A DNA stretch of 64,000 nt from a phage: the sequence record NC_104726.1. One strand, 5' to 3'. The position numbers were made by a program, and so were the translations under genes. The notes below the pieces were generated by a model that saw nothing but the letters and a program-made list of their open reading frames with translations, had not been told where the DNA came from and did not search any database. Below, piece by piece: positions 22,202 to 31,134 of the stretch (within the stretch, counting starts at the first letter, position 1; each line of letters starts with the position of its first letter).

Positions 22202-22480
22202 ATGAGCTGCGAAAAATCTTTTTTCATCATCATTTACGGTAAGGATAACTGCCCACATTGTGTCAGAGCAAAAGAATTTGCAATCAGCAAAGGTCTGCCT
22301 TTTGTATATAAGACACTTGGCGAGGGCTACACAAAAGAAGAGCTTATTGAGAAGTGTAGTCCAATCGTCCCCCGAACGTTGCCGCAGATCTTCTTAGAAA
22401 GCGATCTTGACAGTATCCATATAGGCGGTGCCGACGATTTCATCTCTTTTGTTAAGAATGGTTTTGGAGAGAAAAAGTGA
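22202..22480 (+). CDS. glutaredoxin/thioredoxin-like redoxin
   Basis: CPHC active-site motif near N-terminus, 92 aa, between nrdB and nrdD. Confidence 0.7.
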   Translation: MSCEKSFFIIIYGKDNCPHCVRAKEFAISKGLPFVYKTLGEGYTKEELIEKCSPIVPRTLPQIFLESDLDSIHIGGADDFISFVKNGFGEKK

Positions 22481-23337
22481 AAGTTGTAAAACGGGACGGT
22501 AGAGAAGAGTTCTATAACGGAATTAAGGTGATCAAGGCGGCAGAGTCCGCCTTACTTGAGTCTGGACATACTGAAGAAGAAGCTTACCGGATCGCTTGTG
22601 CGGTTAATGAAGTTGTTGCTAACAATCTGCCAACCGACCAGTGCACGATCTCTGTAAAAAATATCCATATCCTTGTTGAAGATGCTCTTATGGATATGGG
22701 TTTAAAATGTGCAGCCAGAGAATACATCCAGTATAGACAGACAAGAGATAATAACAGAGAGGCAGGTGGAAAACTGCTTGCAGATATTAGTGGCTTCTTG
22801 GATCGAACTTGTGATGAATTTACAAAAGAAAACGCAAATAAGCCTACTAATCATGTACACACTCATCGCGACCTGCTTGCAGGTATTCTTAGCAAACACC
22901 TTGCATCAACACAGATCCTGCCAGACCGTGTCTCCGAAGAGCACAATAAAGGCTTCATCCATGTGCATGATCTTGACTACTTGATCAGTCCGTTAACAAA
23001 CTGTTGCTTGGTAAATTATCCAGATATGTTGGAAAACGGATTCAACATTGGTAACGCCCATGTCAGTAAGCCGAAGTCAATAGGGGTTGCAACAACAATC
23101 CTTAGCCAAATCTCTAGTGCGGTAGCTAGTGCTCAATATGGTGGTCAGACTATGAGCCATATTGATCATTATCTGGCACAGTATGCTGAAGCGACCTATG
23201 AGAAGAACCTTAAATTTTGCCAGGAACATTGGTTGCCAGATGCTGAAACTGTTGCAATGCAAATGACAGATAAAGACGTGTTTGACAGCATGCAGACGTT
23301 GCTTTATCAGATCAACACACTAACCTCGGTAAACGGT
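22477..23337 (+). CDS. nrdD: anaerobic ribonucleoside-triphosphate reductase, exon 1
   Basis: ATP-cone N-terminus; ORF ends in stop TAA at the first three intron bases; T4 NrdD-like sequence continues in exon 2. Confidence 0.85.
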
Positions 23338-23594
23338 TAACAAACTGGCCGTTTTAAAACTCTGCTAACCTTAGTATGAGGGGTCAGCTGATCGCTGGCT
23401 AACGGGGAACGCTAAGGCGAAAGCTATGCCAATCCCGTGACTAGCTTCACAAGGAGTGAGGCGGTTGTAACGACTAACCTTTTGGTGTAGGGATTATGGA
23501 AGATTCCGAAACGCAGGGGTCTGATTAAGAATCACACGGTGTGATTTCAGGCAAGAGATAGTCTGGCCTTGTGGAAACATAAGGGTGGGGACCG
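23338..23594 (+). other. group I self-splicing intron (no internal ORF) in nrdD
   Basis: Exon 1 ends in U; internal guide gccguu pairs with exon end aacggu (U-G at splice site); intron ends in G; P/Q/S-like core elements; splicing restores ...SVNG|QTPF... in frame. Confidence 0.8.
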
Positions 23595-24857
23595 CAAACC
23601 CCTTTTATCACATTAAGTTTAGGACTGGATACCTCGGTCTTTGGTAGAATGATTACCAAAAATTACTTGAAAGTCCACAAAATGGGTCTTGGTGAAGAAC
23701 GGATCACACCTGTGTTCCCTAAAGTGCTGTTCTTCCTAGAAGAGGGTGTCAACATGAACCCTGAGGATCCTAACTATGATTTGAAACGATTAGCTCTGGA
23801 ATGCTGTGCAGAACGTATCTACCCTGACTTCGTATCTGTACCACTAAATAGAAAAGTGACAGGCTCGACAGATGGCAAAGTAACGAGCATGGGTTGCCGG
23901 AGTTTTCTTAGCAAATACAGTGACTTGGAAACAGGCGAGGAGAAATATCTTGGCAGATTTAACTTAGGCGTTGTTAGCCTTAACCTACCAATGATTGCGG
24001 CAAAAGCTAAGACGGAAGGTGTTGATTTCTTTGCAGTTCTTGACGAATACTTGGATCTTGCATACGAGGCTCACCTTGTAAGGGTTAACCGTCTAAAAGG
24101 AACAAAGGCAGGGCAGAACCCCATCATGTGGTGTGAAGGAGCTCTTGCTCGCCTGGATCCTGAAGAGAGTATTGATAAACTCTTCTATGACGGGTACGCT
24201 TCCATCAGCATTGGGTATATTGGTGTGTATGAAACCTGTCAGATTTTGGGTAGAGAGGGTGACAAGGCTTTAGCTCTTGGAATCCTTCAGCACATGAGAG
24301 ATGCTTGTGAGCGATACAAGAAGGAAAGTAGACTAGCGTTTAGCTTGTACGGCACTCCTTCTGAGAGTCTATGCTATAAAGCTGCAACCTGTCTGGATCG
24401 TGAATATCCGGAAGTGTTGAAGCACGAGCATGAATATCTCACCAACAGTTTCCATCAGCCAGTATGGATCAATAGCTCTCCTTTTGATAAGTGGGAGTAT
24501 GAGGAAGGTTTTGCTATGATCTCCTCCGGTGGCAACATCGGATACGTAGAGACACCTAACCTGAAAAACAACCTTGATGCTTTAGAGGCTCTTGTTGACT
24601 TCGGGTATAAACACATTATGTATTTTGGTATTAACCAACCTGTGGATAAATGTCTCAAGTGTGGTTTCTCTGGTGAGTTCAGTGCAACAGCTAAAGGGTT
24701 CTGCTGCCCTGCGTGCGGATGCCACGATGAACAATATATCTCAGTGATCCGAAGAGTGTCTGGATACCTTTCCAGTCCTAACTCCCGTCCTTACAATAAA
24801 GGTAAGCAAGCGGAAGTTATCGAGCGAGTTAAGCACTACGGAAGTTGTGGTTGCTGA
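23595..24857 (+). CDS. nrdD: anaerobic ribonucleoside-triphosphate reductase, exon 2
   Basis: Glycyl-radical motif RRVSGYL near C-terminus; zinc site CLKCGF...CPACGC; frame continuous with exon 1 after intron removal. Confidence 0.85.
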   Translation, partial: QTPFITLSLGLDTSVFGRMITKNYLKVHKMGLGEERITPVFPKVLFFLEEGVNMNPEDPNYDLKRLALECCAERIYPDFVSVPLNRKVTGSTDGKVTSMGCRSFLSKYSDLETGEEKYLGRFNLGVVSLNLPMIAAKAKTEGVDFFAVLDEYLDLAYEAHLVRVNRLKGTKAGQNPIMWCEGALARLDPEESIDKLFYDGYASISIGYIGVYETCQILGREGDKALALGILQHMRDACERYKKESRLAFSLYGTPSESLCYKAATCLDREYPEVLKHEHEYLTNSFHQPVWINSSPFDKWEYEEGFAMISSGGNIGYVETPNLKNNLDALEALVDFGYKHIMYFGINQPVDKCLKCGFSGEFSATAKGFCCPACGCHDEQYISVIRRVSGYLSSPNSRPYNKGKQAEVIERVKHYGSCGC

Positions 24858-24923
24858 TACTTGACAAAAGCCACAAGGATGTGGCACCCTTAGTTCAAAG
24901 ACGAGAACTAAGAGGATTCAGCA

Positions 24924-26084
24924 GTGAGAAAACTTACAACCGAAGATTTTATAGAGGGGGCGAAAGCAGTTCATGGTGATAAATATGATTATTCCAAAGT
25001 CAAATATGTGGGTGCACACACCAAGGTTGTAATTATATGCCCTGAGCATGGAGAATTTAAGAAAACTCTTGGAGATCACCTCCGTAAAAAACAGGGTTGC
25101 CCAAAATGTCAGATTGAAGCAGAAAGAGCGGCTTCTGCTGAAAAATTTAAAGCGGAGGCCGAGGCTAAGTATAATTATAAATATGATTACTCTAAGGTAG
25201 AGTATGTAAATGCTAAAACTAAAGTTGTGATTGTTTGTCCTGTTCACGGCGAGTTTGAGCAAAAGCCTGATAACCATCTCCGCGAGGGGGGTTGCCGTAA
25301 GTGTGGAGGAACTGAGAGAAAGACTACTGAAGAGTGGATCGCTGAGGCAAAAGCGCTTCATGGCGATAAGTATGATTACTCTCTTGTAAATTATAAAACC
25401 GGTAATGATAAAGTGGAGATAATCTGTAATACATGTGGTGCTCACTTCCCACAAAGACCTCATGACCATGCACCAAGTGGAAAAGGTTGCCCCGAGTGCG
25501 GGAAGAAGAAGGTGGCCGAGGTTAGTAGGAAGACGCAGAGAAAGAAAGCATCTGAGGTAGCTAAAAGGTTTGAGGCAAGAGCCAGAGCTATCCATAAAGA
25601 TAAATACGATTATTCCGGGGTGGAATATGTTAATAGGGAGACAGAGGTCACTATCATCTGTCCGATTCACGGGGAGTTCACACAAAAACCGTTTGTCCAC
25701 ATCAACCAAAAAGCTGGCTGTCAAAAATGTGCTAAAGTCGGCTTCTTATCTCATGAACATGGTAGCCTTTATATCATGGTTGACGATCTGGAAGTACCAA
25801 CTATGATGAAAATTGGTGTGAGTGTCCGGGTAGATGAACGAAGAAAAGATGTGTTAAAAAGAGCTAAAAAAGCTGGTGCTAGATTCTCTGATCTACATGT
25901 TATAAAAACTTGGGAAGGAACAACAGACGACATGCAAACTTTAGAAAAAGCTATGCACCAAGCCTTGAGCCAATACAAAATCAACTTCACAGAGAAGTTT
26001 GATGGCTGTCGAGAGTTCTTCTACTACAGACCGGAGGTATTCGAGCTAGTAGAAGAACATTTGAAGAAATTTGCTAATAAATAA
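24924..26084 (+). CDS. zinc-ribbon-repeat protein with C-terminal T5orf172/GIY-YIG-like domain (putative free-standing homing endonuclease)
   Basis: Four about 60-aa repeats of HGDKYDYSxVxY...KVxIICPxHGEF...GCPxC; C-terminal KIGVS...REFFYY; GTG start. Confidence 0.6.
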   Translation: MRKLTTEDFIEGAKAVHGDKYDYSKVKYVGAHTKVVIICPEHGEFKKTLGDHLRKKQGCPKCQIEAERAASAEKFKAEAEAKYNYKYDYSKVEYVNAKTKVVIVCPVHGEFEQKPDNHLREGGCRKCGGTERKTTEEWIAEAKALHGDKYDYSLVNYKTGNDKVEIICNTCGAHFPQRPHDHAPSGKGCPECGKKKVAEVSRKTQRKKASEVAKRFEARARAIHKDKYDYSGVEYVNRETEVTIICPIHGEFTQKPFVHINQKAGCQKCAKVGFLSHEHGSLYIMVDDLEVPTMMKIGVSVRVDERRKDVLKRAKKAGARFSDLHVIKTWEGTTDDMQTLEKAMHQALSQYKINFTEKFDGCREFFYYRPEVFELVEEHLKKFANK

Positions 26085-26145
26085 TAACACACAAAGGGCC
26101 AGCTTTATTCTAGCCCTTCAGTCCGTTGTAAATTAAGGAGTTGTT

Positions 26146-26271
26146 ATGTCATCTGGTGGCTTTAAAGTAAAAATTTGTAAACACTGCGGTTGTAAGTGCA
26201 ATCTTCGTTGGTGCAAGGCACTGGACGATTTTATTTGGCATTGCCCTAAATGTGATGCGGAGTATCTATGA
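26146..26271 (+). CDS. small zinc-ribbon protein (41 aa)
   Basis: CKHCGCKC...CPKCD; AAGGAG SD; stop overlaps nrdG start. Confidence 0.4.
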   Translation: MSSGGFKVKICKHCGCKCNLRWCKALDDFIWHCPKCDAEYL

Positions 26272-26741
26272 ATATTGCCGGATACACAGAAATATCTTAC
26301 ACCGAAGGGCCAGGTATTAGAACTGCCTTATGGGTATCTGGGTGCCCACACGCTTGCCCTGGTTGCTTTAATCAGGCATTTTGGTCAAAAGATAAGGGGA
26401 GAGAGTTTACTGAAGAAGACTTGCAAAAAATCTTGTCAGATTTAGATAACCCGTCTGTGTGCGGTATCTCTCTGCTGGGTGGAGAACCCTTAGCATACTA
26501 TAATGAGCCAGATATTATTAGCCTGATGGAGAAAATTAAGGAAAAATTTGGTGACAAGAAAACTATTCTTGTATATACTGGGTTCACATTTGACCATATC
26601 TCTAGTAATGTTCTTAAACTGGCTGATATCATCATTGACGGTAAGTATGTAAAAGATTTACCAACCAAGAAACCGTTCCGAGGTAGCGATAACCAAAGAA
26701 TGTTTAAAAAAGTAGCAGGCGGTTGGGTCCAGGTAGACTAG
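26268..26741 (+). CDS. nrdG: anaerobic ribonucleotide reductase activating protein (radical SAM)
   Basis: GCPHACPGC cysteine cluster near N-terminus; immediately follows nrdD region. Confidence 0.85.
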   Translation: MNIAGYTEISYTEGPGIRTALWVSGCPHACPGCFNQAFWSKDKGREFTEEDLQKILSDLDNPSVCGISLLGGEPLAYYNEPDIISLMEKIKEKFGDKKTILVYTGFTFDHISSNVLKLADIIIDGKYVKDLPTKKPFRGSDNQRMFKKVAGGWVQVD

Positions 26742-26744
26742 TTG

Positions 26745-26774
26745 TTGACAAAGCTTTGTTTAGATAGGTATAAT
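26745..26774 (+). promoter_or_regulatory. sigma70-type promoter (TTGACA-18-TATAAT)
   Basis: Read directly: ttgacaaagctttgtttagataggtataat. Confidence 0.55.
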
Positions 26775-26805
26775 TATCGTAAAATGAAAGCAGAGGAGGT
26801 GCCAA

Positions 26806-26919
26806 ATGGCTAAAAAAGCCTTGAAGAAGGCGTACAAGAAAGAGATTGCGCTTGAGCTTAAGAAAAAACACAAGCGTGAAAAGAAACATCATGAAGATGA
26901 AGAGGGGGTGCAACAGTGA
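26806..26919 (+). CDS. small lysine-rich protein (37 aa)
   Basis: GAGGAGG SD 6 nt upstream of ATG; stop overlaps next start. Confidence 0.4.
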   Translation: MAKKALKKAYKKEIALELKKKHKREKKHHEDEEGVQQ

Positions 26920-27266
26920 CACAAGAACGTATCGATTTGGCTAATAAGTTTGTAGATCTCATTTTGCCACGGTTAGTTACTCAACATGCAGATGCTATTT
27001 CTACTAATCTTGATGGCTTACGTCTAATGCTGAATCGCACAGATGACCCTCGTATTCGGGCTGATTTAGAAGCCTCTGCCAACAAACTGGAAAAGTTCTT
27101 GCAAGTAGGTACGCAAGAAGCCTTACACAAGATTATGGTGGAAGGTTTCTCTAAAGAATTTACCATTAAAGAGCTTAAGGAGCTGATCCACCAAGAAGAG
27201 ATGAATATCCGAGTTCAGGCTGTTGCAAGCAGCATGGAAGCGGCTATTGAAAAACTGTTGCAGTAA
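26916..27266 (+). CDS. hypothetical protein (116 aa)
   Basis: GTG start overlapping upstream stop. Confidence 0.45.
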   Translation: MTQERIDLANKFVDLILPRLVTQHADAISTNLDGLRLMLNRTDDPRIRADLEASANKLEKFLQVGTQEALHKIMVEGFSKEFTIKELKELIHQEEMNIRVQAVASSMEAAIEKLLQ

Positions 27267-27304
27267 AAGTTCCAGACACATCTCAATCTGAAAGGAGTCC
27301 CAAC

Positions 27305-28099
27305 ATGGGTCGAGCTAAAGAAACAAAACGCATGCGTGATGAAGCTAAAGAGGCTCGCAAATCTGATCGCCTGCGTAAAGCTGCTGAGAAATTTGCTGAA
27401 GAACGAGAGCACACAGCTCCAGCTCTCCGACCGATGAATAAAAAACAAGAGTATTATCTCCACCTTCTTAAAACTAAACAGTTAGTGATCGCAACAGGGC
27501 TGTTTGGCACAGGCAAGTCGTTTATGGCTGCAGCTTATGCTGCAGACCTGCTTCGTAAGAACGAGATTGATAGAATTATTGTTTGCCGCCCAAATGTTGA
27601 ATGTGGAAGCCATGGCACGGGGTTCAAACCTGGAGGTGTATTACAGAAAAACGAACCTTTCTTAAAATCAATTTTAGAAACTCTCAAAAAACGACTCGGA
27701 CCTGGTGCTTATAGTACGTTATTGGGAGACGGTCAGACTGGGCGCATCGAGGTGCAAGAGGTTGCAACAATCCGAGGTCGAGATTTCTCTGATCGTTGCA
27801 TCATCCTAGTTGATGAGTTTCAGTTGACAACCTGTGCAGAGGCTTTGGCAATTGCCACACGGCTTGGTGAGCATGCACAAATGATTTGCATGGGAGACTT
27901 ACGACAGAACGATCTCAAAGGCACCTCAGGACTTCAGTGGCTGATCGACTTTGTAACGAGGCACGAAATCAACGGTGTTGGTATCGTAGATTTTGACGAG
28001 CCAGAAGATGTGGTTCGCTCAGGTATTGGTAGACTGTTTGCACTAGGCCTTATGACTGACCGTAATAAAGGTGTGTGGACCCCTGAGGCAGGTTTATAA
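27305..28099 (+). CDS. phoH: PhoH-like ATPase
   Basis: Walker A GLFGTGKSF, Walker B ILVDEFQ, PhoH-like length and layout. Confidence 0.85.
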   Translation: MGRAKETKRMRDEAKEARKSDRLRKAAEKFAEEREHTAPALRPMNKKQEYYLHLLKTKQLVIATGLFGTGKSFMAAAYAADLLRKNEIDRIIVCRPNVECGSHGTGFKPGGVLQKNEPFLKSILETLKKRLGPGAYSTLLGDGQTGRIEVQEVATIRGRDFSDRCIILVDEFQLTTCAEALAIATRLGEHAQMICMGDLRQNDLKGTSGLQWLIDFVTRHEINGVGIVDFDEPEDVVRSGIGRLFALGLMTDRNKGVWTPEAGL

Positions 28100-28111
28100 T
28101 ATATATAGGAG

Positions 28112-28135
28112 AGAGGGTGATATTATTCACCCTCT
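28112..28135 (+). terminator. terminator-like hairpin
   Basis: agagggtga-loop-tcaccctct immediately after phoH stop. Confidence 0.4.
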
Positions 28136-28142
28136 ATTTAAG

Positions 28143-29072
28143 ATGCGTTTAGGAGAACAGTTATCACGAGAAGAAGTGTTTATCAAGAAAGCTACTGATA
28201 AGCATGGTGACAAGTATGATTACTCCAAAGTTGTATACAAAAACAACACAACACCTGTGAATATAGTGTGCAACAAGTGTGGTACAGTTTTTAGTAAAAC
28301 TCCTAAGTCTCACCTTATAGGCGCAGGATGCCCAGATTGTAAGAACAGGGAGTTAAGTGAGAGATTCCGAATGTCTAAGGAGGAGTTTGTAAAAAGGGCA
28401 ACAGAACTGCACAAGGGGAAGTATGACTACTCTCTTGTAAAAAGTTTTTCTAACAGGAACGACACTGTTACTATTATTTGCCCCATCCACGGAGAGTTCA
28501 AGCAGACAGTTGCAAATCATTTAGCTGGTGGGTGCTACAAGTGTGGAAAAAGAGCGACAGCTAAAAAGATGAGGAAGTCTAAAGATAGATTCATAGAGGA
28601 TGCTACTCAACTACACGGAGACATATATGACTATTCAGAAGTGAAGTATGTGAATACCCACACTCCTGTAACCATTATCTGCAAGTCTTGCGGGTGTAAG
28701 TTTCTTCAACAGCCTGCAAACCACCTGTGCGGTAACGGTTGCCCAGAATGCTCTACTTCAGGATTCAGGCAGAGTACTAAAGAGAGCTGTCTGTACCTTC
28801 TTGTTGATGATCTTACCATTCCCACGGTTATAAAAGTTGGGGTGACTATCAATCTACAGAGCAGACTATACAACATAAGAAGGAACACAAATTTTCCTGT
28901 TCACGTGCTTAAAGTATTTACTTTCGAGCAGGGGTGTGCTACCATGCAGATTGAAAAATTGGTGCATAAAGTCTTTGCAGATCGCAACTGCCACTTCGAA
29001 GGTTTCGACGGGGCAACGGAGTGGTTCTGGTACTCTCATGATATTGTAGAGTTTCTAGAAGACAATTGTTGA
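28143..29072 (+). CDS. zinc-ribbon-repeat protein with T5orf172/GIY-YIG-like domain (paralogue of 24924-26084)
   Basis: Three HGDKYDYS...CPxHGEF...GCPxC repeats plus C-terminal KVGVT...TEWFWY; start at internal ATG after the hairpin. Confidence 0.6.
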   Translation: MRLGEQLSREEVFIKKATDKHGDKYDYSKVVYKNNTTPVNIVCNKCGTVFSKTPKSHLIGAGCPDCKNRELSERFRMSKEEFVKRATELHKGKYDYSLVKSFSNRNDTVTIICPIHGEFKQTVANHLAGGCYKCGKRATAKKMRKSKDRFIEDATQLHGDIYDYSEVKYVNTHTPVTIICKSCGCKFLQQPANHLCGNGCPECSTSGFRQSTKESCLYLLVDDLTIPTVIKVGVTINLQSRLYNIRRNTNFPVHVLKVFTFEQGCATMQIEKLVHKVFADRNCHFEGFDGATEWFWYSHDIVEFLEDNC

Positions 29073-29097
29073 CAAACAGATAAGCTTTAGGTATTAT
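29069..29097 (+). promoter_or_regulatory. sigma70-type promoter (TTGACA-17-TATTAT)
   Basis: Read directly: ttgacaaacagataagctttaggtattat. Confidence 0.6.
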
Positions 29098-29127
29098 TAT
29101 CGGACAAAACAAGGAGAAGGAGATAGT

Positions 29128-29439
29128 ATGGCTACAATACAAGAGAGACTGAATAAAATATACTGCCTGTTTGTCTATAACGGCGAGACAATTTTGGCAA
29201 ATAAAGGATCCAAGAATGTGTGGATCAAGGACAGTGGTGGTAATATAATCAACTTAGCGTTGCTACGTGAGCGCCGACACAGATTCTTTATCGAGTCTCG
29301 GATTATTGAAAGCAGCACCTGCTACAGAACAGGCGATAAAGTAATTGTTGACAATGATACGTGGTATGTGGTAGACTGGCAATCATTGAGCTGTGATGCT
29401 TCTGACAATCGTAAGTATTCCCTAGTGATTGCTAAATAA
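29128..29439 (+). CDS. hypothetical protein (103 aa)
   Basis: GGAGAAGGAG SD upstream of ATG. Confidence 0.5.
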   Translation: MATIQERLNKIYCLFVYNGETILANKGSKNVWIKDSGGNIINLALLRERRHRFFIESRIIESSTCYRTGDKVIVDNDTWYVVDWQSLSCDASDNRKYSLVIAK

Positions 29440-29499
29440 AGGTAAATGTGAATCAGTTTTAAATAAATAGCTTTCAACTTCCAATATTAAGGATTTCTC

Positions 29500-30549
29500 A
29501 TGAATTTAACACCTCGCAGCACCATGGTACACGGCATGAAAGAAAAACAGAACGGTTTCGAACCTATGAGTAATAAAATGTTTGGTATGCCGGGTGGTAT
29601 TATGGAAACATACAGCTACCCAACACCTGTTGTTGACCACGTTCTTTATATCGACGATTTGGAAGACTTACAAGATCATATGTCTCGTCTGCAGACGATC
29701 CGTATGGCTCAGCCAGAAGAAAGTATCCGTGTAATCATTAACAGTCCTGGTGGTTGCGTTCACATTGCTATGGCGTATTTGCAGGCATTCCGCGAGTCTC
29801 AGGCAAGCGTTGTTGCACATGCTGAAGGGATGTGCTGCTCTGCTGGAACAATCTTATGGCTTGGTTGTAAAGAACGTACTGTGGCTCCGGACACAGAGTT
29901 TATGTTCCACTACTATCAAGGTGGCACTTATGGTAACGGTGTGAACATGAATACTCAGGTCAGCTACTGGAAAAAACGTTTTGAACGCCTGATCGAAAAA
30001 TACTACGGTGGGGTGCTGACAGAAGATGAGATCGCATCCATCACAGCTGGTGGCGAAGTGTGGTTGGACGGAGAAGAGCTGGCAGCACGCACTGGAGCTA
30101 TTATTCTGGATGAAGGCAACATACAACGCATCCAGAACGGACAAAAACCGAAAAAGCTTCTGGCAAAAGGTGATGAAGAAGGCGTGTTAGGTGAAGCAGG
30201 TCTTCCGGAGATTCACCAGTGCACATCTTTAGATGAGTTAGTTCATGCTGTTGAATCTGCAAAAGCGGGTGGTTCGAAAGGTGATGTTCACACTGTGTTC
30301 CTGAATCTGCAGATGGAGAGTGGCGAGACCGTCAGAATTGCCCTGGGTGAGATTACTTCAGAAGATCTGCAGAGATTCTCTGTCGTTGAACTTCAGGATA
30401 TTCTGTCTCAATTGAAGACTACTCTGAACGGCGGTGAAGAGGTTAAGGTGAAAGATAAGACTCGCAAGCGTCTGGTGGACAATATTATTAAAACAGCAAA
30501 AGAGCTCAATGAAAAAATCCTGGGTGCAGGAATTGTCGAAGAAGCTTAA
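29500..30549 (+). CDS. ClpP-like serine peptidase with C-terminal extension
   Basis: ClpP signature INSPGG, catalytic Ser context MCCSAGT, His in FMFH; 349 aa with acidic C-terminal half. Confidence 0.7.
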   Translation: MNLTPRSTMVHGMKEKQNGFEPMSNKMFGMPGGIMETYSYPTPVVDHVLYIDDLEDLQDHMSRLQTIRMAQPEESIRVIINSPGGCVHIAMAYLQAFRESQASVVAHAEGMCCSAGTILWLGCKERTVAPDTEFMFHYYQGGTYGNGVNMNTQVSYWKKRFERLIEKYYGGVLTEDEIASITAGGEVWLDGEELAARTGAIILDEGNIQRIQNGQKPKKLLAKGDEEGVLGEAGLPEIHQCTSLDELVHAVESAKAGGSKGDVHTVFLNLQMESGETVRIALGEITSEDLQRFSVVELQDILSQLKTTLNGGEEVKVKDKTRKRLVDNIIKTAKELNEKILGAGIVEEA

Positions 30550-30561
30550 ACATTAATTCTA

Positions 30562-30585
30562 AAGCCCTCTTCGGAGGGCTTTTAT
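30562..30585 (+). terminator. rho-independent terminator
   Basis: aagccctc-ttcg-gagggctt followed by tttat. Confidence 0.6.
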
Positions 30586-30600
30586 GATCTGGAGATTTGC

Positions 30601-31134
30601 ATGACTTGTGCTAGAAAACCTGATGAACAACGTAACGCCTACGATGAGTATGTGACACCGGAGTGGTGTGCAGAAGGGCTGTATGACCTTATTCCGTTCC
30701 CAGAAGACTGGACCTACTTAGAGCCTTGCAGGAATAGTGCCTCAGGTGTGTTCTACTCCCGTATGCCGTTAGGATCTGCATGGGGAGAAATACAAGAAGG
30801 TGTTGACTATCTGAATACAGAATACAACCATGTTGACTGTATTATCACCAACCCACCATACAGCCTGGCTCGTGAGTTTGTAGACAAGGCGTTGAAAGAT
30901 GCTGACGTAGTTATTATGCTTTTGCGTCTTAATTTTCTGGAAAGCAAAGCCAGATTTGAATGGTGGCTTGATAATGCACCTACTACTGTGATCACAATAT
31001 CTAAGCGTCCATCATTTCAATCAAACGGCAGAACTGACGGGCAAGCATATGCATATTTTGTGTGGGATAAGAAAAACCGTTTAGACTTGCCGCCGTTTAT
31101 GTGGTTGGCACCCCCAGAGGTAGACCTGAAATGA
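30601..31134 (+). CDS. DNA methyltransferase (NPPY motif; N6-adenine or N4-cytosine)
   Basis: Motif IV IITNPPYS; small 177-aa MTase. Confidence 0.65.
   Translation: MTCARKPDEQRNAYDEYVTPEWCAEGLYDLIPFPEDWTYLEPCRNSASGVFYSRMPLGSAWGEIQEGVDYLNTEYNHVDCIITNPPYSLAREFVDKALKDADVVIMLLRLNFLESKARFEWWLDNAPTTVITISKRPSFQSNGRTDGQAYAYFVWDKKNRLDLPPFMWLAPPEVDLK

Follow-up and report, generated by a model that had tools for sequence, protein, structure and literature searches.

A 64,000-nucleotide (nt) stretch of phage DNA (sequence record NC_104726.1; hereafter the window) carries, between positions 24,924 and 29,072, two paralogous genes that are probably free-standing homing-endonuclease genes (HEGs) of the T5orf172 class. 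The two genes, open reading frame (ORF) A and ORF B, each encode an N-terminal array of zinc (Zn)-finger units followed by a C-terminal T5orf172 domain. The free-standing homing-endonuclease reading, which had been put forward in an original prediction made from the letters of the sequence alone, is favoured by the architecture of the proteins, by the conservation of the putative catalytic residues and by a patchy distribution among related phages. Cleavage, the identity of the target and homing itself we infer from sequence only.

The predicted architecture of a paralogous pair, with four Zn-finger units in ORF A and three in ORF B preceding the T5orf172 domain, was confirmed by hidden Markov model (HMM) searches and BLASTP. 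The Pfam models DUF723, DUF4379 (described as a 'probable treble-clef zinc finger'), T5orf172 and MUG113 all exceeded their gathering scores in both proteins. At the C-terminus, T5orf172 (PF10544) scored 27.1–31.1 bits in ORF A and 37.7–39.5 bits in ORF B, as compared with a cutoff of 20, and MUG113 was also above its cutoff there. Both proteins matched the PHROGs family phrog_681, 'endonuclease' (5e-81 for ORF A and 1e-66 for ORF B), and the repeats also matched phrog_559, 'HNH endonuclease'; an NCBIfam search gave no match. The two proteins are 37% identical across the last three repeats and the C-terminal domain (BLASTP E = 6e-55). Coding sequences of the same length lie at the same position in other genomes, that of ORF A in O157 typing phage 14 and that of ORF B in navn and phiWec191.

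The repeat units are about 56 residues long and recur with a period of 63–78 residues, occupying amino acids (aa) 7–62, 73–127, 136–192 and 214–269 of ORF A, and 11–66, 80–134 and 148–203 of ORF B. Their pairwise identity is 43–56%, and their likeness is far beyond chance. The columns that are invariant among the units are YDYS, a first knuckle C-x2-[C/H], a Gly, a Phe, a His and a second knuckle G-C-x2-C. No additional copy of the repeat motif turned up when all six frames of the window were scanned.

The catalytic columns of the C-terminal domain were assessed in an alignment of ORF A, ORF B, navn_83, ICP1 Odn (gp88) and ICP1 ORF121, in which E180 of Odn is numbered 179 because the start codon was clipped. 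Eight columns were invariant in the five proteins: one Gly just upstream of the domain and seven positions inside it, namely a Tyr, the Lys and Gly of a Lys-x-Gly motif, an Arg, a Glu, and the Glu and Phe of a Glu-x-Phe motif (residue numbers in Table 1). E271 and E293 of ORF B were conserved at 90–100% in 17 homologues. The KIG/KVG...EFFYY/EWFWY motifs noticed beforehand at the C-terminal end were found in both proteins. That a T5orf172 domain acts as a site-specific nuclease is known from Odn, whose target is cleaved in vitro by the purified protein but not by its E180A variant (Barth et al., 2021; PMC8263062). Since the Glu equivalent to E180 is kept in both ORF A and ORF B, together with the Arg, the loss of catalytic residues that the original prediction had named as evidence against a nuclease has not taken place.

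In the domain the first Tyr is kept (L-Y) and the second motif reads K-[IV]-G, with Lys replacing Tyr. Of the profiles proposed beforehand for a search, those for T5orf172 and zinc fingers gave matches, and the canonical Pfam GIY-YIG model (PF01541) gave none at E ≤ 10. The Lys in place of the second Tyr and the lack of a PF01541 match indicate that the domain belongs to the divergent T5orf172 branch of the GIY-YIG superfamily and is not a canonical GIY-YIG domain. A word-indexed homology search with the C-terminal domain alone yielded only 3 proteins, and full-length homologues were therefore used in the structure alignment. The AlphaFold2 model of ORF B built from 17 homologues had a mean predicted local distance difference test (pLDDT) score of 85, rising to about 90 within units, and a predicted template modelling (pTM) score of 0.38; the Zn units and the C-terminal domain were each confidently folded, and their relative arrangement was undefined. 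The model thus depicts ORF B as a beads-on-a-string array. In the predicted structure the C-terminal domain has the alpha/beta fold of GIY-YIG nucleases, and I-TevI (4.4), PD-T4-3 (3.9), T4 EndoII (3.9), Eco29kI (3.9) and UvrC (3.6) were among the lower-ranked structural matches. A Foldseek search returned nothing significant, and comparison of a profile with the PDB sequences revealed no relative of solved structure.

The source of the window was identified by a megablast search with positions 22400–30600. Nearly all of the 126 phage records matched were Vequintavirus, at 92–99% identity, and the source is an rV5-like Vequintavirus coliphage rather than a phage of the T4-like context first assumed. 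No single record covered more than 83% of the 8.2-kilobase (kb) query. About 20 of the GenBank records of this group are named 'Campylobacter phage' and flagged UNVERIFIED (C2 = MG065655.1, C5, A13b, A14x, D1 and others); by sequence and by NCBI taxonomy they are Vequintavirus coliphages, and their host labels are likely to be wrong.

An alignment with five relatives revealed three independent insertions relative to the phage Murica: an insert in nrdD, a cassette containing ORF A (at site A), and a phoH segment together with ORF B (at site B). Both genes are intergenic insertions, and their junctions are clean. As judged from the combinations found in individual genomes (Table 2), ORF A, ORF B and the putative group I intron of nrdD segregate independently. 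Presence and absence were counted in a collection of 50,697 phage records, and junctions among the records matching each site. An intact empty junction was found in 92 of the 118 records matching site A and in 112 of the 113 matching site B. The presence/absence polymorphism foreseen among relatives is therefore real; most relatives have neither gene, and universal presence at the locus, which had been named as an argument against a mobile element, is excluded by these counts. The exact ORF A cassette occurs in 1 other record and the ORF B cassette in six, and no record of the collection carries both. Copies of a cassette are 99.6–99.9% identical between carriers. Scans of IMG/VR found no close relatives (maximum identity 53% for ORF A and 46% for ORF B), and so added no carriers for tests of linkage.

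Table 2. State of the nrdD intron, site A and ORF B in the window and in related phages.
Genome	nrdD intron	Site A	ORF B
Murica	none	empty	absent
HeinrichReichert	ORF-less	empty	absent
FFH2	with HNH ORF	empty	absent
O157 typing phage 14	none	ORF A	absent
phiWec191	with endonuclease ORF	empty	present
navn	two introns	different allele	present
inoa	none	navn-type allele	absent
Window	ORF-less	ORF A	present

At site A, the cassette stands in place of about 33 nt, between the terminator-like hairpin that follows the nrdD stop codon and the ribosome-binding site of a small Cys-rich ORF. The cassette is better conserved than its surroundings. As compared with O157 typing phage 14, there were 5 mismatches in its 1258 nt, 66 in 1293 nt of left flank and 29 in 1286 nt of right flank (Fisher p = 8e-15 and 4e-5 respectively; 1.5e-8 on the left when a hyper-variable patch is omitted). 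Next to the cassette, the two carriers of ORF A, and they alone, have a recoded 5' end of the small Cys-rich ORF (26155–26196) that is longer by 9 nt; they read MSSGGFKVKICKHCGCKC where other genomes read MSSGIYKICKCGCSC. This 5' end has the standard form in genomes with an empty site and in those with other site A alleles. The recoded patch is a candidate target of ORF A, disrupted or rendered immune.

Site A is occupied by three alleles that have a T5orf172 domain and different arrays. In ORF A all four units are of the DUF723 type; inoa_68 and navn_83 combine two units of that type with a single CapR-type unit, and match the Pfam CapR model (PF21817); the allele of ECML-10 has one DUF723-type and three CapR-type units. 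The inoa/navn allele is accompanied by a recoded stretch of its own, the last ∼120 nt of nrdD. A counterpart was seen in mEp021, a 54.7-kb Escherichia coli phage of the unclassified Caudoviricetes, in which a 'zinc-ribbon' ORF (mEp021_66) and a T5orf172-containing ORF (mEp021_65) are separate and lie ∼385 nt apart. At the nucleotide level mEp021_65 is ∼71% identical to the C-terminal domain of ORF A. To judge from its sequence, the mEp021 pair looks like a split or decaying copy, and like the product of transfer between phage lineages.

At site B, the insertion relative to Murica extends over ∼27431–29058 (right junction 29058/29059) and comprises a divergent segment of phoH as well as ORF B. 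The phoH gene of the window is a mosaic, in which the first ∼130–140 nt are ∼96% identical to Murica and the remainder is only ∼57% identical in nucleotides and ∼50% in amino acids. The divergent allele is found at 100% protein identity in the six ORF B carriers, and the next best match in the collection is 52% identical. This confinement of the allele to ORF B carriers indicates that part of a phoH gene, derived from a donor lineage not yet sampled, moves along with ORF B. At its other end, the TGA stop codon of ORF B lies inside the TTGACA −35 hexamer of the promoter of the next gene. ORF B has no obvious Shine-Dalgarno sequence, and no strong promoter was found immediately upstream of ORF A or ORF B; both genes are probably expressed by read-through from nrdD and phoH past the hairpins.

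Exchange between genomes was followed as identity in 500-nt sliding windows. Identity to navn was 90–99% to the left of site A, 99.8–100% from ∼26.2 to 39.5–41.5 kb, and 81–98% thereafter. Identity to C2 rose from a background of 90–98% to 99.6–100% in a shorter block at ∼26.3–31.5 kb, with another block at ∼36.5–41 kb. The left edges of the navn and C2 blocks coincide with site A, and the right edges fall among small ORFs, none of them as large as an HEG. No second HEG was found at the right edge of the navn block (39–45 kb), which held only small ORFs of at most 139 aa that were not scanned against the profile libraries. The conservation of the cassettes, the recoded flanks and the block edges are consistent with the pattern expected of nuclease-initiated gene conversion, although they fall short of proof. 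The ORF B carriers that were compared share larger blocks, and ordinary recombination could therefore have carried ORF B as a passenger.

If the genes do home, the following course of events would be expected. During co-infection with a Vequintavirus that lacks the gene, the Zn-finger array would read an extended DNA sequence in the empty allele, and the T5orf172 domain would cut that allele near the insertion point. For ORF A the cut would fall in the nrdD–nrdG intergenic region or at the start of the small Cys-rich ORF, and for ORF B in the 3' part of phoH. The break would then be repaired by recombination from the carrier genome, so that the nuclease gene would be copied along with a flanking tract of variable length. 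The carrier itself would be immune, its site having been destroyed by the insertion and by the linked recoded flank (the 5' end of the small ORF in one case, the divergent phoH in the other).

Another explanation, to which we assign a small likelihood, is that ORF A and ORF B are weaponized or domesticated nucleases that cut the DNA of a competitor, whether a satellite, a co-infecting phage or the host, and are kept because they benefit the phage. Odn, which has the T5orf172 domain in common with them, is a weapon of this kind (PMC8263062), their catalytic residues are intact, and the exclusion of co-infecting relatives would give the same block-wise pattern of exchange. However, Odn owes its specificity to a RepA_N/DUF6945 domain copied from its target, whereas ORF A and ORF B have the generic Zn-finger arrays of HEGs and no satellite-like target is known for them. 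Moreover, they are rare among relatives (1 and 6 records), they occupy intergenic sites with linked recoded flanks, and the alleles at site A are interchangeable, all of which argues for a selfish element rather than a selected weapon.

It is less probable still that the two proteins are mainly sequence-specific DNA-binding regulators of the neighbouring nucleotide-metabolism genes, with little or no cleavage activity, in the manner of CapR or of autorepression by I-TevI. Repression by a CapR-type Zn-finger domain has been demonstrated (PMC8096241), the 3' end of ORF B overlaps the −35 hexamer of the next promoter, and a regulatory moonlighting of the ICP1 HEGs has already been raised in the literature on CapR. 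Nevertheless, the kinship of CapR with the ICP1 HEGs is confined to their N-terminal DNA-binding part; these HEGs have a T5orf172 domain in addition, and ORF A and ORF B retain that domain with every conserved residue. In some 80–95% of close relatives the same operon works with these genes missing, so that they have no essential regulatory role.

That the genes are decaying, inactive remnants moved passively on recombining blocks is very improbable: HEGs commonly degenerate after fixation, mEp021 has a split copy and ORF B lacks an obvious Shine-Dalgarno sequence, but both ORFs are full-length and uninterrupted with all Zn ligands and nuclease motifs intact, and the near-identity of the cassettes between carriers indicates recent spread rather than long decay. 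The role as a nucleic-acid sensor or anti-defence factor that the original prediction had entertained found no support. In PADLOC the T5orf172 region matched only a candidate system, PDC-S57, and weakly (E = 7e-4 and 9e-5), and the genes reside in the genome of a lytic phage; a defence-system reading was rejected because the matches were so weak. We conclude that the free-standing homing-endonuclease reading accounts best for ORF A and ORF B.

Table 1. Features of the ORF A–ORF B region, in positions of the window.
Feature	Position	Strand	Remarks
Putative group I intron in nrdD, ORF-less, 257 nt	23337..23593	+	Exact absence in Murica; Rfam RF00028 below gathering score
ORF A cassette, 1258 nt	24887..26144	+	blastn against Murica, HeinrichReichert and FFH2; junction alignment
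ORF A, 386 aa, putative T5orf172-class homing-endonuclease gene	24924..26084	+	GTG start; AAGAGGA ribosome-binding site 8 nt upstream
ORF A predicted DNA-binding array, four Zn-finger units	24942..25730	+	C-x2-[C/H]...C-x2-C, DUF723/DUF4379 type
ORF A T5orf172/MUG113 domain	25755..26039	+	Key residues Y283, K296, G298, R306, E341 (= Odn E180), E364, F366
Small Cys-rich ORF, 41 aa	26146..26271	+	Upstream of nrdG; 5' end recoded in ORF A carriers
nrdG	26268–26741		Between ORF A and ORF B
phoH	27305–28099		Between ORF A and ORF B
Divergent phoH segment and hairpin	27431..28142	+	From ∼codon 48 to the stop at 28099; only with ORF B
ORF B, 309 aa, putative T5orf172-class homing-endonuclease gene	28143..29072	+	ATG start; directly after hairpin
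ORF B predicted DNA-binding array, three Zn-finger units	28173..28751	+	Pfam, unit alignment, AlphaFold2 model
ORF B T5orf172/MUG113 domain	28782..29048	+	Key residues Y218, K231, G233, R241, E271 (= Odn E180), E293, F295
Sigma-70-like promoter of downstream gene, TTGACA-17-TATTAT	29069..29097	+	Near-consensus; kept in empty-site genomes; marks right junction of ORF B cassette

The gene order at the locus is nrdD (split), ORF A, the 41-aa Cys-rich ORF, nrdG, two small ORFs, phoH, ORF B, a 103-aa ORF and a ClpP-like protease gene. The coordinates confirm that, as originally described, ORF A and ORF B bracket nrdG and phoH next to an interrupted nrdD; three small ORFs lie between them besides nrdG and phoH. 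The locus is part of a block of nucleotide-metabolism and DNA-modification genes (30601–31134 and upstream) that includes nrdA-like, nrdB-like, glutaredoxin, nrdD, nrdG, phoH and ClpP-like protease genes and a putative N6-adenine methyltransferase. Public annotations of several genes in this block are inconsistent; nrdG of navn, for example, is recorded as 'minor capsid protein'. The small Cys-rich ORF, annotated as 'ribonucleotide reductase' or 'hypothetical protein' depending on the record, encodes 38–41 aa with about 8 Cys and CxxC motifs, and overlaps the nrdG start codon in all Vequintaviruses examined.

Murica has an intact nrdD of 2124 nt that lacks exactly the 257-nt insert of the window. 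Rfam gave no match at the gathering threshold over 18–33 kb, and a focused search of 451 nt scored the group I intron model RF00028 at 29.8 bits (E = 8e-6), below its gathering score of 50. The nrdD introns of relatives lie at other positions, and some of them hold HNH or other endonuclease ORFs (FFH2, phiWec191 and navn). From these comparisons the insert appears to be a neighbouring mobile element that segregates independently of ORF A and ORF B and is part of neither gene. The 3' region of nrdD also contains a dimorphic, hyper-divergent patch (24698–24755; 25 mismatches in 58 nt as compared with O157 typing phage 14), which turns FCCPACGCHDEQY into FVCPECGNHEEGT within the Zn-ribbon at the C-terminal end of NrdD. 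The two alleles of this patch show no correlation with site A occupancy, and no obvious one with intron state. The patch was rejected as a target or immunity site of ORF A because neither allele follows the occupancy of site A.

The Zn-finger array is widespread. At least 7,788 proteins matched it at E ≤ 1e-5, and IMG/VR contained hundreds of viral loci with the array, some of them in bins of jumbo phages and giant viruses, and a single contig often held more than one copy. A crude motif count in the best 120 homologues assigned at least 47 to a Vsr-like PD-(D/E)xK C-terminus and ∼16 to a T5orf172-like one; Pfam DUF559 was confirmed in one homologue of the array. Most close homologues are proteins of 450–540 aa in which 5–8 repeats are fused to a Vsr-like PD-(D/E)xK domain (DUF559-like) and not to T5orf172. 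Together with the match to the 'HNH endonuclease' PHROG, the Vsr-like and T5orf172 fusions indicate that the array serves at least three nuclease families. As the site A alleles have the T5orf172 domain in common and differ in their arrays, the array behaves as an exchangeable targeting module.

At least two of the three array types at site A are tied to different recoded patches, that of ORF A to the start of the small Cys-rich ORF and that of inoa and navn to the 3' end of nrdD. A bolder proposal, which we regard as a long shot, is that each Zn-finger unit recognizes a short sub-site in the DNA, and that the target would be set by the units that make up the array, in a modular, decodable relation. 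If this were true and the relation could be decoded, the arrays would constitute a natural, re-assortable DNA-recognition system like C2H2 zinc-finger or TALE arrays, here linked to a nuclease that is monomeric.

With ORF A and ORF B, the T5orf172 HEG class gains a densely sampled coliphage lineage, ∼120 sequenced Vequintaviruses growing on E. coli K-12. Alleles of two sites, whether empty, occupied or alternatively occupied, can be had from culture collections, and this makes the lineage convenient for a direct homing test of the class. The same alleles could also show whether the composition of an array predicts the target sequence. The linkage of ORF B to phoH clearly exemplifies how a selfish nuclease gene can be accompanied, as it moves, by a foreign version of a gene conserved in phages. 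In most records these genes are annotated as 'hypothetical protein', and putative T5orf172-family homing endonucleases would be a fitting label.

The class itself is not new. Barth, Dunham and Seed (2023; PMC10448857) defined 'T5orf172 HEGs', 87% of which have CapR, DUF723 or DUF4379 Zn-finger domains, often repeated. These genes cluster near ribonucleotide-reductase and other essential genes, and bound 'HEG islands', stretches of high identity, with recombination among the repeats; according to the same paper, their homing is without experimental verification (PMC10448857). In electrophoretic mobility shift assays, specific binding to DNA was seen for the CapR Zn-finger domain, a relative of the N-terminal regions of T5orf172 proteins from ICP1 (Netter et al., 2021; PMC8096241). 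The suggestion that the array is poorly characterized, or that the proteins form a new family, is thus not supported, since the class, the DNA binding of CapR and the nuclease activity of T5orf172 have all been published (PMC10448857, PMC8096241, PMC8263062). ORF A and ORF B have every sequence-level feature by which T5orf172 HEGs are recognized and are therefore further members of the described class. A search of the literature from 2024 onward found no experimental homing study of T5orf172 genes.

The T4 Seg proteins (SegA–G) and I-TevI differ from ORF A and ORF B in having a canonical GIY-YIG domain at the N-terminus, whereas here the nuclease domain is C-terminal, has no PF01541 match and has Lys in place of the second Tyr. 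The DNA-binding module of Seg and I-TevI is of the NUMOD or helix-turn-helix type, as compared with the Zn-finger repeat array of ORF A and ORF B. I-TevI contains a single Zn finger, a minor-groove-binding helix and a helix-turn-helix. Neither Pfam nor PHROGs searches gave a Seg or I-TevI family match for ORF A or ORF B. By their sequences, then, the two proteins would act like the Seg-type free-standing endonucleases of T4 yet stand outside that family.

To our knowledge, ICP1 Odn (gp88) is the only T5orf172 nuclease that has been characterized biochemically. It resembles ORF A and ORF B in its homologous T5orf172 domain, with the Y, K-x-G, R, E (E180) and E-x-F positions, but its DNA-binding part is a RepA_N-like/DUF6945 domain from the PLE satellite, and it serves as an anti-satellite weapon (PMC8263062). 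ORF A and ORF B differ from Odn in their Zn-finger arrays, and their genomic setting bears the marks of homing elements. PLE CapR has a related Zn-finger DNA-binding domain (PMC8096241). It resembles only the N-terminal DNA-binding part of the ICP1 HEGs, which have T5orf172 as well, whereas the nuclease domain of ORF A and ORF B is still in place and looks competent.

The closest parallel is with the T5orf172 HEGs of ICP1 and other phages (for example ICP1 gp121/ORF121; PMC10448857), which have the same N-terminal Zn-finger repeats and C-terminal T5orf172 domain. They too are variably present between close isolates, have ribonucleotide-reductase neighbours, lie at the edges of high-identity exchange blocks, and have DNA-binding repeats that are shuffled between alleles. 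The paper that defined the class names ICP1-like, Plateaulakevirus, T5-like and VpaJT-like phages, whereas the lineage here is Vequintavirus, and a search of its text (PMC10448857) found no mention of rV5, Vequintavirus or phoH. The arrays of ORF A and ORF B are purely of the DUF723/DUF4379 type and not of the CapR type, and the close tie of ORF B to a phoH allele that is ∼50% identical at the protein level and comes from an unsampled donor is a specific new example.

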